Shown here one piece after another: positions 34,890 to 53,459 of a DNA stretch of 53,459 nt; the stretch's first letter is position 1; each line of letters starts with the position of its first letter. The stretch is from a virus (lineage: Duplodnaviria > Caudoviricetes): positions 1-53,459 of the IMG/VR virus record IMGVR_UViG_3300017987_000115, one strand, 5' to 3'. A program made the position numbers and the translations under genes. The notes beneath the pieces are model-generated. The model was not told the DNA's origin. It searched no databases and saw only the letters and a list, made by a program, of their open reading frames with translations.

Positions 34890-35522
34890 GTGAAAGTGAA
34901 GTTAAAGAAGACTGGTAAGAAAAAAACAAAAACCCAAAAGTCCAAACGCAAAAAAAGTAAACTTACAACACGTAAGACTTTTTCTGTCACGGACGATAGC
35001 CACGGACCTCCATACAACGTATGGGAAAAGATGAATCTATTCATCGATACATGTCATGGTCTAAAAGGCAAAAACCTAAGAAACTTTGTCAGGCAAACGT
35101 ATCACGATTTATTTGCAATTAGACCTGGTCCGAATATTCCAACTGCTCTTGTAAGAGCTGCATGTGGATACGAACTTCAATATAGAGGCTTCATTGAGTA
35201 TGGTATGGAGCATTTGATTTCTGACAGGTTTAAACAAAATAGAGAGTGCTTGCTTTTGTTAGACGTTAATAAGTTGCATCCTAAGTTAGGCGACATATTA
35301 CGTATTTCAATACGTAATGAAGACAAGCAATTGGAAAGGGAAGCTGCAAAAGAGGAACGTCGGCAAGCTAGAGAAAAACGTAGAGAAGAAAGACTTAATA
35401 AAAGGAAGGTGGCTAAAGGTTCTGAAAAGATTTTGAAGAAGCATAGGAAAAAGAAGCGTAAGAAAAAGAAGAAAGAAAAGACTGTTAGTGAGTACGCTTC
35501 ATTGTTGGAAGGTCTGAAATGA
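34890..35522 (+). CDS. hypothetical protein with polybasic termini
   Basis: GGAG SD; GTG start. Confidence 0.7.
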   Translation: MKVKLKKTGKKKTKTQKSKRKKSKLTTRKTFSVTDDSHGPPYNVWEKMNLFIDTCHGLKGKNLRNFVRQTYHDLFAIRPGPNIPTALVRAACGYELQYRGFIEYGMEHLISDRFKQNRECLLLLDVNKLHPKLGDILRISIRNEDKQLEREAAKEERRQAREKRREERLNKRKVAKGSEKILKKHRKKKRKKKKKEKTVSEYASLLEGLK

Positions 35523-36019
35523 GACTGGTAAAAGCGTACGCAGGTATTGGATCGAGAGAGACGCCAGATCCGATATTGGACTACATGAAAAACGTTGCCG
35601 TACTACTGGCCAATAACGGATATCTGTTGCGGTCTGGTGGCGCAAAGGGAGCTGACTCTGCTTTTGAAGAAGGGTGTGATCGAGTAAAAGGAAAGAAAGA
35701 GATATTTTATCCAGAGCGTGCTACAGATGCAGCGATTAAGCTAGCTTCTGACTTGCATCCAGCATGGCATAGGTGCAGTTCTTACGCTAGAAAACTACAC
35801 GGTAGAAATGTGCAGATTATAAAAGGGAGGTACTATCCTCGCAAAATTCACTCTGTAAAATTTGTAGTATGTTGGCAAGATCCGAACAAGAAGTTTGGTG
35901 GAACACGTATGGGAATGAGTGTTGCAGAACGGTTTGGTATAGATGTATGGAACCTTGCAATAGTAGAACTTCGTGAAGCGTTTGAGCATCACATAATTAA
36001 TAAGTTAGGGAAAGTGTGA
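35519..36019 (+). CDS. SLOG-family (DprA/Smf-like) protein
   Basis: YAGIGSRETP, LRSGGAKGADSAFEEG, GGT motifs. Confidence 0.85.
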   Translation: MRLVKAYAGIGSRETPDPILDYMKNVAVLLANNGYLLRSGGAKGADSAFEEGCDRVKGKKEIFYPERATDAAIKLASDLHPAWHRCSSYARKLHGRNVQIIKGRYYPRKIHSVKFVVCWQDPNKKFGGTRMGMSVAERFGIDVWNLAIVELREAFEHHIINKLGKV

Positions 36020-41937: not shown

Positions 41938-42149
41938 TGAAAGCAAAATTGACTGGGTGGAAGTTTGAGATAGGTGAAGAAGCAAAAGTAGATGAATGGC
42001 CTGTGAAAGTCATAAGTAGATCTTTCTCTTATATAGAGAACAGTGGAGGGTTTGAGTCAATAGAAACTTATTACTGTGAGAACATTTCAGAAGACTCTGT
42101 TTGGTCTTATGAAAACTTTGATGTTGAAGATATGGAGAAGAAAAAATGA
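41937..42149 (+). CDS. small acidic hypothetical protein
   Basis: TAATG coupling. Confidence 0.65.
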   Translation: MKAKLTGWKFEIGEEAKVDEWPVKVISRSFSYIENSGGFESIETYYCENISEDSVWSYENFDVEDMEKKK

Positions 42150-42973
42150 AGGTTGTAGTCTTAGGAGCTGGTCCGGTTGGTTGTATTGCCAAGAGGCGTT
42201 TAAACCTTGTGAATATCAACGGTAATCTTTTCGACTCTATGAGCTATGACGAAATTCACAAAAGAACATTTAACCATGGAGCTCATTATCTTTGGAAACC
42301 TATTGAAGGTTTTTCTGTTAAACGTTGTAGAATTATTACAACTGTTGACGGTGATCAGGCTGTTGAAGAAAGCGTGCGTCGTTACAAAACAAAGGTTGGT
42401 CGATACGAAGAAGGGCGTGATTGGTCTAGACAGTTCAAACCGAAGTCAAAAGGATATCGAATAATATCTTTCCCTGACGTTGTAATTAACCACCATCACA
42501 AAGCCAAACGTATTGACGTGGTAAACAAGACTGTCACATTTGCAAACGGAACAGAAGACCACTTTGACGTTATTATAAGCACAATTCCTCTGAACATCTT
42601 AGTCCAGATCTCTGGTATGGTGGACAGACCGCAGTCGGTATTTGAATATCGTGAAATATACGTATATGAAACTCCGAGTATGCGTTGTAAGAACGAAGAT
42701 ATGGTTGTAGACTATGACTCGTCACCTACAGAGTCTGTATACAGACGTACATATCGAGACGGAAAATGTCATGCAGAGTCATTGAAGAAGTTTGACAAGC
42801 CTGACGCTATTTTAACGCCTGGTAAGATATGGACAAATGAGGAGACTAGAGAATGGGTAGAGCGTTTAAAAAGTTACAATATACATTGCTTTGGACGGTT
42901 CGGTACTTGGGAGGAAGATGAACTCTTGCACCAGGCGTGTGAAAAAGTTCAGAACTTTGTGGAGGGACTGTAA
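42146..42973 (+). CDS. FAD-dependent oxidoreductase (UDP-galactopyranose-mutase/protoporphyrinogen-oxidase-like fold)
   Basis: N-terminal VVLGAGPVG, GAHY, FDVIISTIPL, C-terminal FGRFGTW. Confidence 0.8.
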   Translation: MKVVVLGAGPVGCIAKRRLNLVNINGNLFDSMSYDEIHKRTFNHGAHYLWKPIEGFSVKRCRIITTVDGDQAVEESVRRYKTKVGRYEEGRDWSRQFKPKSKGYRIISFPDVVINHHHKAKRIDVVNKTVTFANGTEDHFDVIISTIPLNILVQISGMVDRPQSVFEYREIYVYETPSMRCKNEDMVVDYDSSPTESVYRRTYRDGKCHAESLKKFDKPDAILTPGKIWTNEETREWVERLKSYNIHCFGRFGTWEEDELLHQACEKVQNFVEGL

Positions 42974-43046
42974 TGTCAGGTTTCAGAGACCTTTCAATTA
43001 TATATGCAGTGACGTCATTGTCGCCGTTTATACTGTGGAGGACAAC

Positions 43047-44009
43047 GTGAAAGAGTTTGAAAAGATTTGGAAAGACCAGAGAGACTTTAATAAGAACTTC
43101 TTTCCAGCGCCAGAAACTTTCGACGATATGTCTGCTCAGACCAAAGAGCTAATACTTCATATGATGTCTGAGTGTGATGAGCTGTTGAGAGCAACGTCTT
43201 GGAAAATTCATAGGCGCAATAATAACAAGCCAAATCCTGAACAAGTGCGTGAAGAGCTTACAGACATATTCAAGTATTGGATTTCACTATGCCAGGTATG
43301 GGGAGTTTCACCGAAGCAAGCTGTCGAGGATTACTGGAGGAAAAGTATGGTAGTCCGCCAACGATATTCTGAAGAGTTTGTAATGCGTTTGAGCAAACAC
43401 CGGATAGCTCTCTTTGATATAGACGGTGTTATAGCTGACTATTGTAATGGATTTTTAAGTTGGTTGATACGAGAAGCCTCTGCGGATTCGTTAAAGTCGT
43501 TGGCTGATAGGGCAAGAAATCTTGTAGATTCTCAAGTATGGATGTGCGCCGAGTCGTTGAAAATTGGTGAAGGAAAGTGGCAGGAGCTTAAACATAGGTT
43601 CAGAGTTACAAGAGGAAAAGTCTATTTGCCTGTGTTTAAAGACTCTCTCTATCTTCTAGACCTTTGTAGGCAAAAGGGATTTAAAATCGTTCTTTTGACC
43701 AGTAGGCCGATTGACAGGTATCCTAATATATACACAGATACTCTGGAATGGCTCAATAAGCATTCAATTCCATTCGACGCCATCTGGTGGTCGTCCGATA
43801 AAGACGAGATGCTTCTCTCCAGAAACTTGCTACCTAATATTGATTTTATGGTTGAAGACAATCTTCGATACGCAGATCAAATGGCGAATATCGGAGTCAA
43901 GGTTTATTTAATCAATAGATCAAATAAACCTATAGATGTTGGACGTAAAAAGTATAAGCGTCCTGGACAAATTAAAATAATCAAATCATTAGAAGAGGTG
44001 AAGGTATGA
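43047..44009 (+). CDS. dimeric dUTPase/MazG-type NTP pyrophosphatase fused to a HAD 5'-nucleotidase-like domain
   Basis: GGAGG SD plus GTG; SECDELL...WK...EELTDIFKY; FDIDGVIADY, LLTSRP, K, VED HAD motifs. Confidence 0.85.
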   Translation: MKEFEKIWKDQRDFNKNFFPAPETFDDMSAQTKELILHMMSECDELLRATSWKIHRRNNNKPNPEQVREELTDIFKYWISLCQVWGVSPKQAVEDYWRKSMVVRQRYSEEFVMRLSKHRIALFDIDGVIADYCNGFLSWLIREASADSLKSLADRARNLVDSQVWMCAESLKIGEGKWQELKHRFRVTRGKVYLPVFKDSLYLLDLCRQKGFKIVLLTSRPIDRYPNIYTDTLEWLNKHSIPFDAIWWSSDKDEMLLSRNLLPNIDFMVEDNLRYADQMANIGVKVYLINRSNKPIDVGRKKYKRPGQIKIIKSLEEVKV

Positions 44010-44224
44010 CTGGACATCGAGATCACGAGTTTGTTGTAATTGAAAGTAAAAGGCTGGACTTACTTTTGAAGTCTGCAGGATGCCTAGTAACAGGCGACCT
44101 TACAGTGCCTGAATGGAGAGCTAGACTTAAAAAAGCAGTCGCAGACGTTAAAAAGAACGGAAGGATACTATCAGAGGTTATAGATGACGCTCTGAAAAAA
44201 CTTTTAGTGGAGGAAGAAAAATGA
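44006..44224 (+). CDS. small protein sharing the N-terminal MxGHRDH with the ThyX homolog
   Basis: ATGA coupling on both sides. Confidence 0.7.
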   Translation: MTGHRDHEFVVIESKRLDLLLKSAGCLVTGDLTVPEWRARLKKAVADVKKNGRILSEVIDDALKKLLVEEEK

Positions 44225-45279
44225 ACGGGCATAGAGATCATGCAAGGTTTACAGGGGAGGCTCCTAAGACTCCAATCGATAGGGGTCCTTTTGGACTGAA
44301 AGTTTCTCTTGATATGTGGGGACCGAAAGAAAACTTGATGGCGCACATATGGAATGAGCTAACAGCCAATTGGGGCAACGAACCTGCAAGAGTTGAAAAA
44401 GACGAAGATCTTACAACTCCGGAGATGGAACACGTGTACGAGGCGTTTGCAGGTAAAACTCTGTCACAGGTTCTTGAAGGCGTTCACTTTTGGTTCACTA
44501 TCGACGGTGTGACAAGAGCGTGCACACACCAGTTGGTTCGGACACGTATTGGAGCTGCTATGATGCAACATGGCGGACGTGATAACGACTGGCGACATCG
44601 TCCGTGGACAATGCCGGAAACGATTCATCGTGCGTGTAGTTATTTTGATAGAGAGCCTGCGGAGAAGTTTAAGTACGATGACCGCTCTTATCAAATGCAT
44701 CCGTGTGTAAGAGATCGAGAGGCTTTGGACAATTATATATACGGATCTGACGTAGACGGCGATATGGTTAAGTTAAAGCTCAGGGACCGCGTCTTTGAAG
44801 TTGTAGATGAATGCAAACAGTTATATGCAGCACTTGTTGATGCAGGTATTCCGTGGCAAGATGCTCGGAGGGTACTTCCCATTGGCCTGCAGACTTACAT
44901 TCATATCAACTACAACTACCTTGCTTTGAAAGGCGTGTTGGCAAATCGACTCGAGCATGTGATGGATTGGGAGATTAACTGCGTGTCTCAGCTGATGTTA
45001 CGTGAAATCAAAATGAAGTGCCCGTCAATATTCTCCAAGAACCTCGGTTCGCATTCTGATCGAATGAAGAAAGCAGCGTTTGAGAATATGGAGTCATGGC
45101 CTCCTGACGGAAAGTACGCTTCTGATAAGATGGGTGACGTGAGAACCCACAATCGAACGCAGATGCCGTTTTGGGTTCTTTCTCCAGAATCAATGGAGGG
45201 TGGTCCTATCGAATGGATACCTACCAATGGAATATATCCCAAAAATCTTAGACCAAAAGGAGAGAATAATGTCAAGTAA
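44221..45279 (+). CDS. thyX: divergent ThyX-family flavin-dependent nucleotide-modifying enzyme
   Basis: F.IDGVTRACTHQLVRTR, Y..LV..GIP.QDAR.VLP, WEI; signature residues are altered. Confidence 0.85.
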   Translation: MNGHRDHARFTGEAPKTPIDRGPFGLKVSLDMWGPKENLMAHIWNELTANWGNEPARVEKDEDLTTPEMEHVYEAFAGKTLSQVLEGVHFWFTIDGVTRACTHQLVRTRIGAAMMQHGGRDNDWRHRPWTMPETIHRACSYFDREPAEKFKYDDRSYQMHPCVRDREALDNYIYGSDVDGDMVKLKLRDRVFEVVDECKQLYAALVDAGIPWQDARRVLPIGLQTYIHINYNYLALKGVLANRLEHVMDWEINCVSQLMLREIKMKCPSIFSKNLGSHSDRMKKAAFENMESWPPDGKYASDKMGDVRTHNRTQMPFWVLSPESMEGGPIEWIPTNGIYPKNLRPKGENNVK

Positions 45280-46114
45280 AAAGAAGAAGACTACAAAGAA
45301 AAAAGCTTCGACGGGTCCGGTACGTTTACCTACAGAACGTTCCAAGCCCAAGCAAAAACTTTCTTCTTATTCCATACTTTTGTATGGTGAGAAGAAGGTC
45401 GGAAAGACTACAATGTGTGCCGAGCCTGAGGCCACTTTGTTTGTACCTTTTGAGCCAGGCACAAAGGCTTTGTCGGTATTTGAAATGAAACCAGAGGACT
45501 GGGGACACTTCAAAAAGATTGTCAATGCATTATGCAAAGACAAAAAGAACAGGTTCAAGACTGTTGTCATCGACACTGTGTCAGTTGCTTACAAACGTTG
45601 TTGGGAGTGGGTTTGCAAGCAGCATGTCATTGGACACCCGTCTGAGGAGAAGTGGGGCAAGGCCTGGACTGACATCTCAGACGAGTTTACAAAGACGTTC
45701 GACAAGCTAATTCATTCTGGAAAAGGCGTTATATTCGTCGCCCATTCTCACACCCAGAGAATCGAGACTGTCGACGACGAGTATGACCATATCTCTCCTG
45801 CACTCCCAAAACAAGCGAACGAATACTTCTCTGCCATTGTCGATATCTGGGCATACTATGGTTATCGAAAAGGCAAAAGGTACCTTACGATTAACGGAGA
45901 CGAAAGCGTTGCAGCTGGTCAGCGTATACCTGGTAGATTCTTGACACCAAAAGGCAAGAGACTTAAAAGGATTTACATGGGTGATAACTCTAAAGAAGCC
46001 TACAGTAATTTTGTTAAGGCTTTTAACAATACATACAAGCCACCAAAGGAGGTGACGAAGTCAAAAGTTAAAAAGACCAAGAAAAAGAGTCTCAAAAAGA
46101 AGTCCAAAAAATAA
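45269..46114 (+). CDS. AAA (Sak4/AAA_24-like) ATPase
   Basis: LLYGEKKVGKTT, VVIDTV, FVAH. Confidence 0.85.
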   Translation: MSSKKKKTTKKKASTGPVRLPTERSKPKQKLSSYSILLYGEKKVGKTTMCAEPEATLFVPFEPGTKALSVFEMKPEDWGHFKKIVNALCKDKKNRFKTVVIDTVSVAYKRCWEWVCKQHVIGHPSEEKWGKAWTDISDEFTKTFDKLIHSGKGVIFVAHSHTQRIETVDDEYDHISPALPKQANEYFSAIVDIWAYYGYRKGKRYLTINGDESVAAGQRIPGRFLTPKGKRLKRIYMGDNSKEAYSNFVKAFNNTYKPPKEVTKSKVKKTKKKSLKKKSKK

Positions 46115-46129
46115 AAGGAGAAAAGTGAA

Positions 46130-47080
46130 ATGAGTCTCAAGAGCATTTTGAAGAAGGGTCAGAAGAAATGGAAGAAGGCCCGCAAAGACGCCGAGAATAT
46201 GGGGAAGTCCCAGGTGGAAGACGGAAGGTACGTTGCGAAACTTGTTGAGGTAAAGCCCGGCAAGTCTCAGGCAGGACGCGATCAGATTGTGTTCACGTAC
46301 AAGATTCTGGAGGGCAAGCCCAAAGGCAAGAAGGTTTCTTCCTTCGAAGGAATTGAAACCGAAAAGAACCTCATGTTCCTCGCAAACAAGATTTCGAAAT
46401 TTGGATACGAGGTTCCCGAAGATGCGACTGAAATTGTCGACGTGGTCGAAGAGCTTCAGAAAGAGAAGCCGACATGTCGCATCCGTGTCAAGGACAACGA
46501 CGGCTTTGCCAACGTTTATCTTGACGGTCTCGTAGACGAGGAAGAAGTCGAAGAGTCCGAAGAAGAAGAAGAAGAAGAAGAAGACGAAGACGAAGACGAA
46601 GAAGAGTCCGAGGATGACGACGAGGAAGAAGAGTCGGAGGACGAGGATGAAGACGAAGACGAAAACGAAGAAGAGTCCGAAGAAGAAGAGGACGACGAGT
46701 CCGAAGAAGAAGACGACGAAGATGAAGATGATGAAGAAGATGACGAAGAAGAGGAAGAAGAAAACGAAGAAGAAGAGGACGAAGACGACGAAGAAGGGGA
46801 CGATGCCGACGAAGACGAGGATGAGGAAGAGGAAGGCGAAGAAATCACAAAGGGCATGAAAGTTCTCGTCAAGAAAGGCAAGAAGAAGCTTCCCGGAAAG
46901 GTCACCAAGATTTTTGAAAAGGACGAAGCGGTCAACGTCAAGCTCGATGATGGCAAGCTCTTGAAAAAGGTTTCCATCGACAAGCTCGAAGAGTACGACG
47001 AAGACGAAGTTCCCGAGGAGCCCAAGAAAAAGTCAAAGGGCAAAAATGGAAAGTCCAAAGGCAAGAAAAAGAAAAAGTAG
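46130..47080 (+). CDS. DUF669-type ssDNA-binding-like protein with a ~100 aa D/E tract and SH3/KOW-like C-terminal domain
   Basis: DGRY.AK......SQAGR.QI...Y.I.EG OB-like N-terminus next to the AAA gene. Confidence 0.7.
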   Translation: MSLKSILKKGQKKWKKARKDAENMGKSQVEDGRYVAKLVEVKPGKSQAGRDQIVFTYKILEGKPKGKKVSSFEGIETEKNLMFLANKISKFGYEVPEDATEIVDVVEELQKEKPTCRIRVKDNDGFANVYLDGLVDEEEVEESEEEEEEEEDEDEDEEESEDDDEEEESEDEDEDEDENEEESEEEEDDESEEEDDEDEDDEEDDEEEEEENEEEEDEDDEEGDDADEDEDEEEEGEEITKGMKVLVKKGKKKLPGKVTKIFEKDEAVNVKLDDGKLLKKVSIDKLEEYDEDEVPEEPKKKSKGKNGKSKGKKKKK

Positions 47081-47101
47081 CGTGAGCGAAACTTCTTTAA
47101 T

Positions 47102-47130
47102 GGGAGGGAGGCTTCGGCCTCTCTCCCTTC
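47102..47130 (+). terminator. terminator-like hairpin with a UUCG loop
   Basis: GGGAGGGAGGC-TTCG-GCCTCTCTCCC. Confidence 0.7.
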
Positions 47131-47161
47131 TGCAATTCTAAATTATAATTAGGAGTTCAAA

Positions 47162-47779
47162 ATGGAGCCTTTGAAAGTTTTCAAACCTATGCCAATGAAT
47201 ATGAGGGAGCGTCTCACAGACGAGTTTTTCGTAGAGTGCAGGTCTATTCTGGAAAAGAAGGGTAAAGATTACTCTCCAGACGACGAGGCGTTTGGCGAGA
47301 TCATAAAAATGGCACGTGCAACTAACACGTCGCCAGAACAGGTTATGTTTATCTACATGTTCAAGCACTGGTCTGCTATCCAGAGCTATGTGAAAAGAGG
47401 ACGTGTAGAGTCAGAAGAGATTCACGGAAGACTGAGTGACCTTGCAAACTACGCTGCACTAATGTCTGCTTTTATAAAGTTTTACAGGTCGGGAACTGTA
47501 AATGGCAAATCCAACGTTGAAATTTTTGATGACGATTACTATAACTTTAAACACGGTGACAAGGTAAAACTTAATCCAACCGTAAAGTTTGAAGAAATCA
47601 ACGAAGACCTTATGGACGCGTATGCTTGGACGATTGAACAGGGTGTGAAAGAGTGCAGTGATTATGTTGTTGAAGGAAAATCGTTCATAGACTCTCAAAT
47701 AAAAGAACGTCCTAAGTTCATGAAACTAAAAGAATTTCCAAATAGGGTTTTTCTTAGAAGATTGTTTGTAAGGGTTTAA
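47162..47779 (+). CDS. nucleotide-modification-associated domain 1 (Nmad1/DUF1599-like) protein
   Basis: KKGKDYS....F...ESEE....L.DLANYA.L pattern. Confidence 0.75.
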   Translation: MEPLKVFKPMPMNMRERLTDEFFVECRSILEKKGKDYSPDDEAFGEIIKMARATNTSPEQVMFIYMFKHWSAIQSYVKRGRVESEEIHGRLSDLANYAALMSAFIKFYRSGTVNGKSNVEIFDDDYYNFKHGDKVKLNPTVKFEEINEDLMDAYAWTIEQGVKECSDYVVEGKSFIDSQIKERPKFMKLKEFPNRVFLRRLFVRV

Positions 47780-47780
47780 C

Positions 47781-49718
47781 ATGGCACGTCTTAAATTAAA
47801 AAGAAAGATTCGTGCTGAACAGTCCGGAATGAACAAGCTTCGTGGAAAGTATATAGCTCTTGACACGGAAACTACTGGACTGATTCCGTACGGACCTTGC
47901 AAACACTGGGGCTTCTATCCTGCCAGACCTTTTGCCTTTTCTTTTTGTGACTGGTACGGTAACAAGGCTTATATACGTTGGGAAGTCGATCCAAAAACAC
48001 GTCGTGTTATACAAGAGAAAAAGACTGCTAAGATGATACAAGACCTTCTTGATAAGAAGGGAGTTGTAATCATATTCCACAACGCTTCATACGACTTGAA
48101 GATGATACAGTTTTCAGGTTTTGAGATACGCGGCAAGTATCACGACACTATGATTATGGCTCACGTTGTGACCGGAGGAAGTGAATTTACGTATGCACTT
48201 AAACCTATTACAGACAAGTTTTTTGACTTCCCACAACAAGACCAGAAAGATCTAATTGAAAGTGTCAGGTCAGCGTGGAAGCAAAACAAAAAAGTGCATC
48301 CTGAGTGGAAGTTCGCAGATAAAGCGTTCCAAGGAAGGCAACCTGTACAAGCAGACTATTGGATGGGTAATAGAAGGCTTTGCAAAAAGTACGCTGTTCA
48401 AGACGCAGTACGTACAATGTTGCTTTATCAGTTTTTGATAAAGAAGCTGAATAAAGATAAAGTACTTAAAGACGTTTACAGAAGAGAGATGCGGCTCCTT
48501 CCTGTTCTTGAAAAAATGGAACTGAAAGGTATGATGGTTCGCAAAGAAAAAGTTCTAGAACTGATAGAATACTATGAGAACTATATGAAAAAGCAGTTGA
48601 GGAAAGCAAATAAAGAAGGTGGTGGTAAAGACCTAAACTTCAGAAGTCATAAACAGTTAGTTAACGTATTCTTTGAGATACGGAAACACAAGCCAGAATT
48701 CTTTACACCTGGCGGAGCTCCCAAGATGGATAGCAAAGTACTTGGACGTCTCGCTGAGAAGGACAAGCTTGCCAAAGCTATTCTGGAGTATAGAACTGCA
48801 GCCCACGCTATTTCAGGTTTCCTTGAACCGTACACTAGGTTTTGGGTACCGGAAGATGGCCTGATGGTTTTACATCCAAACTTTAGACAAGTTGGAACTG
48901 TTACGGGACGGTTGTCTTGCTCAGATCCAAACTTGATGACAGTTTCTTCTGCGTCAACAGGTCGTCGTCGTTCAGATGTTGTAGAGCGTCCTCGTGAAGC
49001 TTTTGGACCTAGACCTGGTACCGTTTGGTACCTACCGGACTATTCACAGATTGAAGTGTGGCTTTTCTCTTTTATGTCTGGTGAGAAGGGTATGCAAAAA
49101 GCCTTGATGAGCGGATACGACTTCCATGGCTCGGTTGCAAATGATGTTTGGGGCAAAGAGCAAAACTTTAAAGAACGTTATAAGTATTGGAGGAAAAGAG
49201 CTAAAATTGTAATGTTCTGTAAGTTGTACGGAGGCGGAGCCAAAGCTGCTTCCAGACTTTTGGAGTGTTCGGTTGAAGAGGCAGAGGACTTTATATCAAA
49301 GTTCGATATGAGGTTTCCAGGTGTCAATAGATTTCAAAGACGTATGATCAACAGGGCAAACAGGCAGGGCTTCGTAAGAAATAAGTTTGGAAGGATTTAT
49401 TACTTACACCACAGCCAGTCTTATCGTGCAGTCAATTACCTTATACAAGGAACTGCCGCAGACATTTTGAAGAACGCTTTGTACTATGTTGATAAGATGT
49501 TGAAAGAGAAGTGGCCTGGTTGCAGTCTTTTGCTTCCTTTGCACGATGAAATATGTGTCGAAGTTCCTCTCGAGTACCACAGCAAGAGGCTTATGAGAGA
49601 AGTAATATTTGAAATGCAAAGAGACTCTGACAGGGTTGGTGTTCCAAAGCCGTTACCTGTTGGAATGAAAATATGTAAGACCCATTGGGATGAAACTACA
49701 GAAATTGAGAATGTATAA
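47781..49718 (+). CDS. polA: DNA polymerase family A (3'-5' exonuclease plus polymerase)
   Basis: DTETTG, HNASYD, TGRLS, DYSQIE, AK...F...YG, NYLIQGTAAD, LHDE. Confidence 0.95.
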   Translation: MARLKLKRKIRAEQSGMNKLRGKYIALDTETTGLIPYGPCKHWGFYPARPFAFSFCDWYGNKAYIRWEVDPKTRRVIQEKKTAKMIQDLLDKKGVVIIFHNASYDLKMIQFSGFEIRGKYHDTMIMAHVVTGGSEFTYALKPITDKFFDFPQQDQKDLIESVRSAWKQNKKVHPEWKFADKAFQGRQPVQADYWMGNRRLCKKYAVQDAVRTMLLYQFLIKKLNKDKVLKDVYRREMRLLPVLEKMELKGMMVRKEKVLELIEYYENYMKKQLRKANKEGGGKDLNFRSHKQLVNVFFEIRKHKPEFFTPGGAPKMDSKVLGRLAEKDKLAKAILEYRTAAHAISGFLEPYTRFWVPEDGLMVLHPNFRQVGTVTGRLSCSDPNLMTVSSASTGRRRSDVVERPREAFGPRPGTVWYLPDYSQIEVWLFSFMSGEKGMQKALMSGYDFHGSVANDVWGKEQNFKERYKYWRKRAKIVMFCKLYGGGAKAASRLLECSVEEAEDFISKFDMRFPGVNRFQRRMINRANRQGFVRNKFGRIYYLHHSQSYRAVNYLIQGTAADILKNALYYVDKMLKEKWPGCSLLLPLHDEICVEVPLEYHSKRLMREVIFEMQRDSDRVGVPKPLPVGMKICKTHWDETTEIENV

Positions 49719-49924
49719 TGGCTATGAGTAAACGGCTATTGTGCCAAAAAATATGCAGGTTGTCAAGAATAGTAAGAACTAGACACGGTTGTTCGAGTCT
49801 TCAAAAAGATGAACTTAAACAGCTGTATAGTTATCTTTCACTTAAGCAGAAAGAAGTAGAAGACCTCGAGCTAGAGATCTCAAGATTAAGGACTCAGCTT
49901 AAATCGAAAGGCAAGTATAAATGA
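49718..49924 (+). CDS. small hypothetical protein
   Basis: Coupled on both sides. Confidence 0.65.
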   Translation: MAMSKRLLCQKICRLSRIVRTRHGCSSLQKDELKQLYSYLSLKQKEVEDLELEISRLRTQLKSKGKYK

Positions 49925-52035
49925 TAAACCAAAAAACGTTTACGACGCATGGCGTCAACTTTACTGGAGAGTCGGGCGACCAGTGGACCGGAGACTGCCC
50001 TTTCTGTAGTAAAGAGGGAAAGTTTTACGTTAACGTCAACAATGGACTTTGGGATTGCAAGACGTGCGGTTTAAACGGAAACATTTCTGAATTTTTGAAT
50101 CAGACGTCTCTTATTTACAAGAAAAGGCTTAAGAAAAAATTACTGATTAAGCTCGCCAAGGATAGGGGTCTTCCTTCAAAGGCTTTCAAAGGATTAGATA
50201 TCGGATGGAATGGAAAGTCGTTTACTTTTCCTGTCAGAGATGCGAAGGGAAAAGTTGCAGATATTAGAATGTTTAAAACCGGATCAAAGTTTATACGTAG
50301 TACTCCAGGATGCAAGACAGGTTTATTAGGGCTAGATAAAATTGGAGAAAATGTTGAAGAGCCTATTATAGTATGTGAAGGAGAGTGGGACAAAGTTGCT
50401 TTAGATTTCCTTTTGAAAAAAGTGGGAAAACCTGGAAAGGTTGTAGCTGTTCCAGGGGCACAAGTTTTTAAGCAGCATTGGGTTCCGTATTTTGACGATA
50501 GAATTGTATACGCAATGTATGACAATGACAACCCTGGAGAGAACGGAGAACTTGTTCTTGAAAAAAGACTGACAGGGACTGCAAGTGAACTCTGGTATTT
50601 GCATTGGATAGAAAAACTTCCGTCTGGTTTTGATGTACGTGACTACGTGATCCGTGCACGTCGAGACAAAAAATTCAAAAAGTATTATAAGTCCATTATG
50701 TCAATGCTTCGGTCCTCTCCGAGGAAAGAGACTTCTAAGGATACAACGTATTTGAATGAAAAGGGTAAGAAGGTTATAACGAAAAAAGTTAAACCAATCT
50801 CTCTTAAGAAGGTATTTAAGGCATTCAACAAATGGTTGTATCTACCTAATACAGACGCGATTGAAGTTACACTTGCTGTAATGGCTTCGAATAAAATGGA
50901 AGGAGATCCGTTATGGATGTTTCTTGTCTCTCCTCCAGGGTCTTGTAAGACTGAAACGCTATCGTCTTTATCGAAATGTAAAAATGACGTATACGCAACG
51001 TCTTCTCTTACGCCTCATTCGTTAATATCTGGAGCGTCCTGGGTTGAAGGATCTGATCCAAGTTTGATACCGAGGTTGAATGGAAAGGTTCTTGTTATAA
51101 AAGACTTTACAACAATCATGCAGAAAAGGGAGCAAGAGCGTGATGAGATATTTGGTATCCTCAGAGACGCTTATGATGGTAAGTGTTCTAAGGTTTTTGG
51201 AACTGGTATTACTCGAAGCTACTCTAGCAGCTTTTCTGTTCTCGCTGCGGTCACACCACGTATATATGAAGTTGCGGAAAGCCATCAGTCGCTTGGAGAG
51301 AGATTTCTGAAATTTACAATGGCCGATAACATGAAACATTACTCTGAGGAAGAAATTATTAACAAGGCCATTTCAAACGTTAACAAAGAGAATAAGATGA
51401 AAGACGAATTGGCAAACGCTGTATATGCTTTCATGCAAAATAAATATTTGGGTTTCGTACCCGATATGCCAGACGAGGTAAAAGCGAAGATTATTGCATT
51501 GGCGAGGTTCGGTGCAAGAATGCGTGGCACTGTATCTAAAGAAAAACATCGACAAGACATTGTAAAGTCAAGACCGTCTGCGGAAGTTGGAACTCGAATC
51601 GCAAAACAGTTAACAAAACTTGCGTACTCGCTTGCAATGATAAGGAATAAAAAGTCTGTAGGTGACAGGCAGTATAAATTGGTTAAGAAGACTATGCTAG
51701 ATACTATTCCACAAAGGTCAGAGGATATTGTACGTCTTCTTTTCAAGAAGTGCAAGACTATTGACGATACATTAACAACAAAAGAAATTTCTCATGGAAC
51801 CAAGTATCCGCTTGCAACTGTGTTTAGAATTTTATCAGACATGGTTATGCTGGAAATAGTATTACAAGTTGGTCCGGCAGGTAAGCATCAGTATACACTT
51901 TCACCTTATATACGAAAGCATTTAAAGACAGCAGAACTGTACACAACGTCTGAAGAGTTGAATAGAACGTCGATGATGAGAAAACGTTTAAAGATGAAGA
52001 AGAAAAGGAAAAGAAAAAAGTTGGTGATCGTTTGA
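49921..52035 (+). CDS. primase-helicase (Zn finger, TOPRIM and AAA+ domains)
   Basis: CPFC...CKTC, VCEGEWD, YDND, SPPGSCKTE Walker A, ERF. Confidence 0.88.
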   Translation: MINQKTFTTHGVNFTGESGDQWTGDCPFCSKEGKFYVNVNNGLWDCKTCGLNGNISEFLNQTSLIYKKRLKKKLLIKLAKDRGLPSKAFKGLDIGWNGKSFTFPVRDAKGKVADIRMFKTGSKFIRSTPGCKTGLLGLDKIGENVEEPIIVCEGEWDKVALDFLLKKVGKPGKVVAVPGAQVFKQHWVPYFDDRIVYAMYDNDNPGENGELVLEKRLTGTASELWYLHWIEKLPSGFDVRDYVIRARRDKKFKKYYKSIMSMLRSSPRKETSKDTTYLNEKGKKVITKKVKPISLKKVFKAFNKWLYLPNTDAIEVTLAVMASNKMEGDPLWMFLVSPPGSCKTETLSSLSKCKNDVYATSSLTPHSLISGASWVEGSDPSLIPRLNGKVLVIKDFTTIMQKREQERDEIFGILRDAYDGKCSKVFGTGITRSYSSSFSVLAAVTPRIYEVAESHQSLGERFLKFTMADNMKHYSEEEIINKAISNVNKENKMKDELANAVYAFMQNKYLGFVPDMPDEVKAKIIALARFGARMRGTVSKEKHRQDIVKSRPSAEVGTRIAKQLTKLAYSLAMIRNKKSVGDRQYKLVKKTMLDTIPQRSEDIVRLLFKKCKTIDDTLTTKEISHGTKYPLATVFRILSDMVMLEIVLQVGPAGKHQYTLSPYIRKHLKTAELYTTSEELNRTSMMRKRLKMKKKRKRKKLVIV

Positions 52036-52382
52036 GGATTGAATTTTACAAAAAAGAATTGTGGGAATATGGACAGTATGTTTTGCACTTTATTAAAAGA
52101 CGTGACTTCAAAGGTTCTATACTTTATAAAGACGAGATACCAATTTCATGTATTCCTGGAGAAGGAGTCATACTTGAATACCTTAGACGAAAACAATGCA
52201 TGCCGGTTCTCGATGGGGTAGGAAACTTTTTTAGACTTTTAATTCATTTTATGTCGAGAGACGGTCGAGACTTCAAACAGTTCGATGGAAGATTGGCTAT
52301 TGTGGCTTTGATGAAAGGCTTGAGTTTTTTACACGGAAGAAAGGTTGAAGAATGCCAAGGAGAAAAGAAAGTTCCGTTTTAA
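52032..52382 (+). CDS. hypothetical protein
   Basis: TTG start overlapping the upstream stop. Confidence 0.55.
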   Translation: MRIEFYKKELWEYGQYVLHFIKRRDFKGSILYKDEIPISCIPGEGVILEYLRRKQCMPVLDGVGNFFRLLIHFMSRDGRDFKQFDGRLAIVALMKGLSFLHGRKVEECQGEKKVPF

Positions 52383-52702
52383 ATCAACCTGGTCAGATTA
52401 AAATTTTAGACTTTCACCGTTTTTCAGGTTGGAGTAGGAGAGGAACTGTCTATAGAATTGGACTTCGAATACCGCAATTTGACTTTCCAACTCTTCCTGG
52501 TATGGATTTTAAACCTAAAGTTATTTCCAGTGCAAGACGTTTAGATAATAAGGCGTGGTCGTTCTTTGCGTCGTGTGCAGGGTACTCAGACGTTGCTGTG
52601 AAAGACGGTACGATATTTGTATATGGAAATGGCGAAAATGACCTTGCTGAAAGAGTCTCGTATTGGCTAAAATGTAAAAAGTGGAGGGTAGTACTTCTAT
52701 GA
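52352..52702 (+). CDS. hypothetical protein
   Basis: Coupled to the downstream ATG (ATGA). Confidence 0.6.
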   Translation: MPRRKESSVLNQPGQIKILDFHRFSGWSRRGTVYRIGLRIPQFDFPTLPGMDFKPKVISSARRLDNKAWSFFASCAGYSDVAVKDGTIFVYGNGENDLAERVSYWLKCKKWRVVLL

Positions 52703-53459
52703 GTTTGTTTATGAAAAAAAGAACTCTTGGGATAATAGTTACCACTGCGTATCCAAATATAATGCGTGACATGTTTATGAAAACCATAGACAATATAAGT
52801 CACATCAAAAATAGGTCCGTACTTTTGATAAATTTCTTGGACAAGGCGTATACAAAAGGTCAGGTGAAGGAAGTAAAAAAGATATTAAAGTCCAAGGGTT
52901 GGAAAGTTAGATGTACCACTCATAGAACAGACCCAGGCATGTCCCCAAAACTTATATGGTTGAGAGAGTCCGCGTGCCAACTTTTTCCAGATGCAAAGTA
53001 TTATCTTATAACAGACGACGACATGAAATTTGGATCGGGTACTCTGAAGTATAATATACCTGCAGGACAGAGGTATCTGGAGTGCCTTGATTACATTGGC
53101 AGATTTGAAAATTGCTGCGGCGTAATGTGCAAAGGCTTCCTAGGCGGATACATACAACAGTTGAAAATTAAACCCACGTGGCATTGTGTCTACTCTATTG
53201 ACAAGGGAATGTTTTTAAGGAACGGCATGCCGATTTTGGGTTATCATATCTCACCTCCAGAAACTTGGAAACTTTACGGAGGGTACGCTGAAAAACCGTC
53301 GTCGTTTGGATGGATTTCAAAAGGCTATTGGTTTGCAAAGCAAATGAATGTTCCAATAATACATAGACCTGAGAAGAAAACTTACAAAAAGTCGAAAAGA
53401 AGTATGCACAGTTTAAAGGTCGTAACTGACAATGTTGGAAAGTACCTAGAAAAAGTTTA
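52699..53459 (+). CDS. GT-A fold glycosyltransferase (partial, runs off the window end)
   Basis: Hand translation is open for 253 codons: LGIIVTT N-terminal strand, LIWLRE, YYLITDDDMKF (DxD motif). Not in the ORF track. Confidence 0.7.
   Translation, partial: MSLFMKKRTLGIIVTTAYPNIMRDMFMKTIDNISHIKNRSVLLINFLDKAYTKGQVKEVKKILKSKGWKVRCTTHRTDPGMSPKLIWLRESACQLFPDAKYYLITDDDMKFGSGTLKYNIPAGQRYLECLDYIGRFENCCGVMCKGFLGGYIQQLKIKPTWHCVYSIDKGMFLRNGMPILGYHISPPETWKLYGGYAEKPSSFGWISKGYWFAKQMNVPIIHRPEKKTYKKSKRSMHSLKVVTDNVGKYLEKV

Follow-up and report, generated by a model that had tools for sequence, protein, structure and literature searches.

We have found that positions 42146-45279 of the uncultured virus record IMGVR_UViG_3300017987_000115 carry one instance of a nucleotide module that is widespread in phages and confined to them, made up of a small flavoprotein, a fused pyrophosphatase/nucleotidase and a member of the ThyX family without the histidine of its signature motif. 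The IMG/VR record (linear, 53,459 bases, 86% complete by the CheckV estimate) was analyzed over its whole length, referred to here as the window. This module is a genuine, conserved unit of function, and a new pathway of DNA modification is a strong candidate for its role. As to what it makes, we infer a C5-modified deoxyuridine monophosphate (dUMP), probably 5-hydroxymethyl-dUMP, produced by the His-less ThyX together with the flavoprotein, with the nucleotide pools shaped by the pyrophosphatase/nucleotidase and the base decorated by variable genes, a reading to which we give slightly less than an even chance.

By its genes (terminase, portal, major head protein and tape-measure protein) the window comes from a long-tailed phage, of which the cultured phages are remote kin (the top PolA match is 28% identical). 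All the open reading frames (ORFs) considered here lie on the + strand and are closely packed, with 42146-45279 inside the replication genes. The starts at 42146, 44006 and 44221 each overlap the stop of the preceding gene, and the GTG start at 43047 is preceded by GGAGG. The tight gene run that an earlier note on this DNA had described from 42146 onwards is real: every ORF listed exists on the + strand, with overlapping starts and stops. The genes of the module region are:

42146..42973, + strand: mini UDP-galactopyranose mutase (UGM)-like FAD protein of 275 amino acids (aa), with GxGxxG, Y199-R200 and a C-terminal GRFGTW, from a family profile against the UGMs of the PDB
43047..44009, + strand: predicted fusion of an NTP pyrophosphatase (dimeric dUTPase/MazG type) and an NT5C-type 5'-deoxynucleotidase of the haloacid dehalogenase (HAD) class, from dUTPase_2 and Hydrolase matches in the family
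44006..44224, + strand: 72-aa ORF repeating the first seven residues of ThyX (MxGHRDH), present in the window phage only
44221..45279, + strand: His-less ThyX (THQLVRTRIGAAMMQHGGRDNDWRHR) with conserved N- and C-terminal extensions, Pfam Thy1 E 2.1e-21

That these genes work together is indicated by their co-occurrence, which the earlier note had proposed as a check: flavoprotein, pyrophosphatase/nucleotidase and ThyX are strictly together in the uncultured lineage of the window, and the set recurs in seven unrelated cultured phages (see below). A first set of 19 IMG/VR loci was found via ThyX, and in all 12 that reach upstream the order is nuclease, flavoprotein, fusion gene and ThyX. After ThyX, the loci of this set continue with Sak4, DUF669, usually a gene for a 205-aa protein, PolA and primase. 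A second set of 26 loci, some on contigs common to the first, was found via a narrower alignment of the flavoprotein, and there the triad appears in identical order in 24 loci, the other two being cut. Two distant single members of the flavoprotein family, used as queries, found no viral loci. ThyA (PF00303) was absent from five relatives, and ThyX is the sole Thy-type gene in the complete ones.

Variable genes accompany this constant core. In the second set, a 280-aa gene resembling GT-A glycosyltransferases (GTs) is present in 10 loci and a short-chain dehydrogenase/reductase (SDR) gene in 9, both together in none; these genes stand between ThyX and PolA (L028-L047). Some loci have a VOC/glyoxalase-like gene beside the SDR, and one likewise adjoins the SDR of Escherichia coli phage ECML-117. 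The window itself has neither the 280-aa GT-like gene nor the SDR of its relatives, and the TET-associated glycosyltransferase (TAGT, PF20691) model is absent from it. The similarity of the 280-aa gene of the relatives to TAGT is weak and does not suffice for a firm assignment, with 2 of 10 members matching (E 0.006-0.017, below the cut-off) and 1 of 108 homologues with the precomputed domain. The same gene gave no match in the PDB and none in cultured phages.

ThyX enzymes have the signature motif RHR(X7-8)S with an upstream His. The earlier note had described the gene at 44221 as a rewired ThyX with RTR in this place, and our analysis agrees that it is truly atypical. The protein matches Pfam Thy1 (PF02511) at E 2.1e-21 (77 bits against a cut-off of 24.8 bits), and its AlphaFold2 (AF2) model (pLDDT 86.1) is matched by Foldseek to the ThyX of M. 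tuberculosis and T. maritima with probability 1.00 (TMt 0.59-0.74). Nevertheless, it departs from the signature motif, having RTR, a G at S88 and no H53 His. We used the T. maritima numbering, obtained from PDB alignments (chain number minus 12), with the window clade placed by MAFFT. On this scale the clade has kept Q75, R78, R80, R90, R147 and R174 and has changed H79 to T, S or A, E86 to Q, S88 to G and Y91 to D, with the H53 position again devoid of His. The window residues R107, R109, R120, R216 and R243 (corresponding to R78, R80, R90, R147 and R174) are invariant in the 29 aligned clade members, which also have invariant blocks of their own: an N-terminal GHRxH, MQHGGRDNDWRHR and the C-terminal extension. 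A word search gathered 319 proteins of the clade, many on contigs of 45-75 kb, and a search of 185,579 species genomes with two clade patterns gave 94 pattern matches and 0 confirmed relatives. Two further observations concern the architecture of these proteins. The clade member P0102 is fused to a PP-binding (acyl-carrier, PF00550) domain, and many members have a CxxC...CxxC insert, zinc-ribbon-like, in the C-terminal extension (alignment columns 380-460).

On its own, the flavoprotein of the window shows a GxGxxG motif and zero Pfam matches, and a single-sequence word search with it recovered only itself. An exhaustive profile search delimited a distinct family of about 270-300 aa, with 743 representatives at E<=1e-3 and 194 at E<=1e-10. 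A Pfam scan of 46 members gave a few general FAD/NAD matches (NAD_binding_8 4, DAO 4, Amino_oxidase 3), and Pfam GLF was absent among the matches of these proteins. Against the PDB, a 46-member profile found UGMs in all of the 14 best sequences (E 4.6e-15 to 1.2e-10), the next being a sulfide:quinone oxidoreductase (E 3.5e-6). Three blocks account for the similarity to UGMs (Rossmann motif, YDxLISTiP...YR and GRF..W), and in the alignment the counterpart of the YR motif in the A. fumigatus UGM is its FYRAT block. Foldseek with a weak AF2 model (pLDDT 62.6) also placed UGMs at the top, with NADPH- and NADH-bound UGMs among the neighbours. The 'UGM-like flavoenzyme' of the earlier note was therefore well named, but the protein has merely 275 aa, against 391-513 aa in the matched UGM chains, and lacks the full three-domain architecture of these enzymes. 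UGMs consist of three domains, including a helical one that binds the nucleotide-sugar, and this helical domain is presumably among the parts absent from the mini flavoprotein. Judged by its sequence, the window flavoprotein is UGM-like and not a UGM.

The gene at 43047 had been read previously as a fusion of a dimeric dUTPase with a HAD domain, and the comparison of 10 family members bears this out, dUTPase_2 (best E 3.5e-7) and Hydrolase each being found in eight. The window protein alone falls marginally below the dUTPase_2 cut-off (22.8 against 22.9 bits). The motifs ExxE...ExxD are the acidic metal motifs of the all-alpha NTP pyrophosphatases. In the family ExxE, ExxD, DxD, TS, K and DD are invariant, the first two corresponding to E42, E45, E70 and D73 in the pyrophosphatase half, and HAD motifs I-IV are kept in the fusion as D124, D126, T218, S219, K252, D270 and D271. 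The HAD half aligns to gp61 of phage KandZ, annotated as 'deoxyribonucleotidase' (hhalign probability 97.9%). Pfam NT5C (PF06941) matches gp61 with 31.9 bits, above the cut-off of 24.8 bits, and the window fusion alone with 18.8 bits, below it. Compared with the PDB, the family found the C. jejuni dUTPase 1w2y at E 4e-4, with DCTPP1 among the weak matches. The last match brings in a cytosine pathway, in which the pyrophosphatase would act as a dCTPase like gp56 of T4, with dCMP as the substrate modified by the ThyX-like enzyme; the dUTPase_2/MazG superfamily does include dCTP pyrophosphatases. We regard this as very improbable. R174 of ThyX reads the uracil carbonyl, and its equivalent is invariant in the clade. 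Besides, the sole chemistry reported for module-bearing phages concerns thymidine (PMC12191111, as far as its main text goes).

The small MxGHRDH protein of the earlier note exists as well (44006-44224). The 72-aa ORF begins MTGHRDH and ThyX begins MNGHRDH, and no similar ORF was found between the fusion gene and ThyX of the relatives. Positions 44006-44245 suggest the insertion of a small gene just past the start of ThyX, with a duplication of the seven initial codons.

The same set of genes is present in cultured phages, which we regard as the central result. The nearest cultured matches to the window ThyX are in mycobacteriophages, Gordonia phages and ECML-117. ECML-117 (Wifcevirus) encodes a 329-aa hypothetical protein that falls in the flavoprotein family (hhalign 98.3%, E 2.4e-14), and then an RTR ThyX, a HAD_PNKP phosphatase and an SDR that shares 35% identity with the one found in relatives of the window. 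In KandZ (Plotvirus) the 'oxidoreductase' gp60 is a member of the family (hhalign 98.3%) and is followed by the NT5C nucleotidase gp61, an SDR (gp64, 44% identity over 125 residues) and a ThyX with RQR (gp67). In PB1 (Pbunavirus) gp68 is the flavoprotein (hhalign 98.6%), gp61 an RTR ThyX and gp59 a kinase/phosphatase. Four more phages, chosen from the flavoprotein match lists (Streptomyces ShakeNBake, Arthrobacter Wollypog, Microbacterium RikSengupta and Rhizobium RHph_Y65), have a phosphatase or phosphohydrolase near the flavoprotein, and Thy1 was above the Pfam cut-off in all five records searched, these four and PB1. The middle residue of RxR was T, N, S or Q in all seven cultured-phage ThyX genes, never H; an extra RHR-like string in ShakeNBake comes from another long frame and is presumed to be spurious. 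Neither ThyA nor a Tet_JBP Pfam match was found in PB1, ECML-117 and KandZ. The flavoprotein was detected in 362 phage records, 292 of them of Pseudomonas, and in 126 actinophage records covering five host genera (Mycobacterium, Gordonia, Microbacterium, Streptomyces and Arthrobacter). A published table for phage Xenia2 points in the same direction, listing oxidoreductase, phosphatase, FabG-like reductase, MazG-like and ThyX-like families as common to largely the same actinophage clusters (PMC11385102, in the part that treats them). Regarding annotation, gp191 of RHph_Y65 (L060 6950-7912) appears as 'polysaccharide deacetylase', but 92% of its length is covered by a match to the flavoprotein of ECML-117, and a ThyX lies 1.5 kb downstream.

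The connection with DNA modification comes from the literature on some of these phages. According to the text of a 2025 preprint (PMC12191111), the virion DNA of Pbunavirus F8 is refractory to enzymes whose sites contain TG, and in F8 and 14-1 novel nucleosides of 362 and 390 Da replace about one quarter of thymidine, in a TG context. Its authors describe the two species as thymidine derivatives with a tetrose sugar alcohol and with an aldopentose, and they point out that Pbunavirus lacks known modification genes, so that such phages are missed. By our own arithmetic, 5-hydroxymethyl-deoxyuridine (hmdU, 258) plus tetritol (122) minus 18 gives 362, and 258 plus pentose (150) minus 18 gives 390, so that O-linked derivatives of hmdU account for the masses better than C-C adducts do. 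A 2026 preprint describes nanopore reads of native Pbunavirus DNA as poor, a defect removed by PCR, and the BASEL paper describes Wifcevirus isolates as resistant to the restriction-modification systems tested, by no known protection mechanism. In the sections concerned, the Banzai and WEN7 papers and the 2026 Pbunavirus preprint are silent on the genes behind the modification. A more specific version of our proposal follows these data: the His-less ThyX and the mini UGM-like flavoprotein might form a two-flavoenzyme system that carries out the missing first step towards the alditol- or pentose-linked hydroxymethyl-uracil of Pbunavirus, and that would be the first ThyX-type pyrimidine hydroxymethylase. 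We advance it tentatively, as a possibility rather than as the probable answer.

In our literature search, the only published link between ThyX and phage hypermodification was a hypothesis on Bacillus phage SP-15, which has dihydroxypentyl-uracil and Thy1-family synthases only, and for which gp130 was proposed as hydroxymethyluridylate synthase (PMC5977210, in the passages on this pathway). In a 2026 NAR paper, ThyA homologues are shown to produce 5-hydroxy-dCMP with flavin; ThyX is not mentioned there. We considered gp130 as kin of the window ThyX clade and rejected it (hhalign probability 0.3%, no specific kinship). Directly upstream of this atypical Thy1 is an ORF with an SDR-like YxxxK motif (L052 695-1339), which was compared with the SDR of the lineage and likewise discarded, having no specific kinship to it.

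These data bear on a role in sugar handling, in which the UGM-like flavoprotein would make or activate a sugar of unusual type (furanose or open-chain aldose) destined for the base, which it would reach either via a glycosyltransferase or as a flavin N5-iminium adduct that the ThyX-like enzyme would transfer to C5 of dUMP. The UGM homology with its conserved YR motif agrees with it, as do the description of the Pbunavirus adducts as a tetrose sugar alcohol and an aldopentose (PMC12191111, main text) and the case of SP-15, with its dihydroxypentyl-uracil, exclusively Thy1-family synthases and proposed function of gp130 (PMC5977210, same passages). We consider it improbable, however. Much of the UGM is absent from a protein of 275 aa (against 391-513 aa), the masses suit O-linked hmdU and not C-C adducts, and gp130 has no specific kinship to the window clade. 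The earlier note had suggested the flavoenzyme as a possible source of an unusual sugar, but a supply to the glycosyltransferase is also at odds with the distribution of the genes, the flavoprotein being universal and the GT-like genes optional (10 loci). It is with ThyX, and not with the GT-like genes, that the flavoprotein co-occurs, so it is not likely to be a mere supplier of their sugar.

Downstream of the module, the window continues with the following genes:

45269..46114, + strand: AAA_24/Sak4-like ATPase, replication/recombination context (Pfam E 5.6e-40; phrog_124)
46130..47080, + strand: DUF669 protein with a long acidic stretch, context (Pfam DUF669 E 2.2e-6)
47162..47779, + strand: 205-aa protein, possible divergent DUF1599/Nmad1 domain in residues 1-110 (Atlas score 0.90; phrog_6802 E 1.5e-9)
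47781..49718, + strand: family A DNA polymerase with 3'-5' exonuclease domain (Pfam E 6.9e-69)
49921..52035, + strand: DNA primase(-helicase) (phrog_47 E 8.5e-25; Zn_ribbon_DnaG)
52699..53457, + strand: GT-A-like candidate with ITDDD motif, truncated by the window end (Atlas lead; weak tblastn)

The earlier note had placed an Nmad1 gene beside polA, which we could only weakly sustain. The lead to DUF1599 for the 205-aa protein came solely from Atlas, a language-model feature search (score 0.90), and Pfam DUF1599/Nmad1 (PF07659) gave no match at E<=10 in this protein or in the six-frame window, and none in five relatives. The DxD glycosyltransferase reported at 52699 is unproven: the ITDDD motif is there, but a match to a GT family and conservation in the relatives are not. 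The ORF has no Pfam or PHROG match and no IMG/VR relatives by pattern scan. One nearest Atlas cluster has Glycos_transf_2 in 30% of its members, and weak tblastn matches (24% identity, E 2e-4 to 3e-4) were found in 10 records of RHph_Y65-type Rhizobium jumbo phages, which also carry the module.

Some other observations were made in the surroundings. The PolA of one relative is a single 1053-aa frame (L015 14191-17352) with about 260 extra residues between the matched halves, possibly an intein. In three loci (L006 6777-7367, L011 4791-5387 and L019 4354-4935) a small methyltransferase-like gene with a FYETP motif and a staphylococcal-nuclease-like gene lie between DUF669 and the 205-aa gene. 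Upstream of the helicase of the window, positions 35519-36019 code for a 166-aa protein with a weak DprA/DNA_processg_A Rossmann-type match (E 0.0012).

If the module makes a modified dUMP, its steps could be arranged as follows. The His-less ThyX would take dUMP, as we infer because the phosphate- and uracil-binding arginines are kept, and would release a C5-substituted product other than dTMP, most likely 5-hydroxymethyl-dUMP via hydration of the exocyclic methylene intermediate. The flavoprotein would supply flavin or a redox step tied to ThyX, and the pyrophosphatase/nucleotidase would shape the dUTP and dTTP pools. The phage PolA would then incorporate the analogue, and variable genes would decorate the base on the DNA, possibly the GT-A-like gene in the window and a different GT-like gene or the SDR in the relatives.

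Several points weigh against this scheme. The replacement in Pbunavirus of one quarter of T in a TG context implies that the sequence is read at the level of DNA and that dTTP is still required. Neither the TG specificity nor the one-quarter replacement follows from a pool-level hydroxymethylase alone, and the same data (PMC12191111, main text) do not fit the depletion of the canonical dNTP that the earlier note had assumed. This preprint names no genes in its main text, where 'ThyX' and 'thymidylate' are absent, extended data and supplements aside, which may name them. What connects the module with the modification is a correlation, seen in a few groups. The candidate decorating gene of the window is not conserved, being found in none of the four relatives that reach past the primase, and has no similarity to the 280-aa GT-like gene of the relatives. 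No dNMP/thymidylate kinase was found in five relatives, four of them at least 93% complete (kinases of the 5-HMUDK type were not searched for). Finally, the cultured-phage ThyX proteins retain E86 and S/T88 and may be plain thymidylate synthases.

This last possibility can be extended to the whole module as an ordinary thymidylate supply. The His-less ThyX would make dTMP, with the flavoprotein as an NAD(P)H-driven flavin reductase that replaces functions lost with H53 and H79; the dUTPase would feed dUMP, the nucleotidase would recycle host nucleotides and the Pbunavirus modification would depend on other genes. We take this as a real possibility, although one that we do not favour. It is consistent with the conservation of all the nucleotide-binding arginines, with the annotation as thymidylate synthases of cultured homologues that keep E86 and S/T88, with a ThyX that is the sole Thy-type gene of complete relatives devoid of ThyA, with the three quarters of T that are canonical in Pbunavirus (PMC12191111, main text) and with the NADPH- and NADH-bound UGM structures among the fold neighbours of the flavoprotein. 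On the other hand, a fused pyrimidine 5'-deoxynucleotidase would undo dTMP synthesis, and the window clade has replaced E86, S88 and Y91, gained invariant blocks and never been found in the cellular genomes searched. Moreover, the module is present precisely in Pbunavirus, with its modified thymidine (PMC12191111, main text), and in Wifcevirus, restriction-resistant by a mechanism that is not known.

The consequences of the hydroxymethylation reading, if true, would be considerable. To our knowledge, phage pyrimidine hypermodification starts from ThyA-family enzymes or from TET/JBP dioxygenases; to these two starting points a ThyX-based route, equipped with a flavoprotein of its own, would add a third. 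Hundreds of cultured phages, among them PB1-like therapy phages, Wifcevirus, the flavoprotein-bearing actinophages and Rhizobium jumbo phages, would carry non-canonical thymidines, and so would the large uncultured lineage of the window. The module would also supply candidate genes for the modification of Pbunavirus, a group that is described as widely used in phage therapy and whose DNA chemistry affects restriction, END nucleases and nanopore sequencing. A ThyX with THQxVR[T/S/N/Q/A]R plus a flavoprotein of 270-330 aa could serve as genomic marker for candidate phages, and the idea is testable in cultured phages of E. coli K-12, M. smegmatis and PAO1.

Compared with known enzymes, the window ThyX shares fold, Pfam family and nucleotide-binding arginines with canonical ThyX (T. 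maritima TM0449, M. tuberculosis). It differs in having RTR instead of RHR, with the H53, E86, S88 and Y91 positions altered, in about 130 extra residues in the conserved N- and C-terminal extensions of its clade and in being always accompanied by a separate flavoprotein. The latter resembles UGM (Glf) in the FAD Rossmann motif, the YDxLISTiP...YR block and the C-terminal GRF..W motif, but is about 100-240 residues shorter and always adjoins nucleotide enzymes, not sugar genes. Pbunavirus (PB1, F8, 14-1) and Wifcevirus have a homologous flavoprotein, an RTR ThyX and a HAD phosphatase adjoining ThyX, genes that are annotated as ThyX, as 'putative flavoenzyme' or hypothetical and as polynucleotide kinase/phosphatase. 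They differ from the window in their DnaE-type polymerase, in a HAD of the PNKP type without the pyrophosphatase fusion and in a shorter ThyX, nearer to the canonical one; the SDR of ECML-117 resembles that of the window's relatives, the window itself having none.

Among phages with characterized hypermodified bases, SP-15 (Kropinski et al. 2018, PMC5977210) is similar in combining a hypermodified thymine with synthases solely of the ThyX family (gp9 and gp130), with the difference that the synthase function of gp130 is a proposal of that paper, not shown in its passages on the pathway. The pathways of M6, ViI, SP10 and PhiW-14, as presented in the relevant sections of Lee et al. 2021 (PMC8989533), have in common with the module a pool enzyme of the thymidylate-synthase type located in the replication module, with variable decorating genes downstream, and in these phages also only part of the T is replaced. 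They start with a ThyA-family dUMP hydroxymethyltransferase, whereas the lineage of the window has no ThyA and the flavin-dependent ThyX is its sole candidate for this step. With respect to those pathways, the UGM-like flavoprotein and the fused pyrophosphatase/nucleotidase are new parts of the window lineage.

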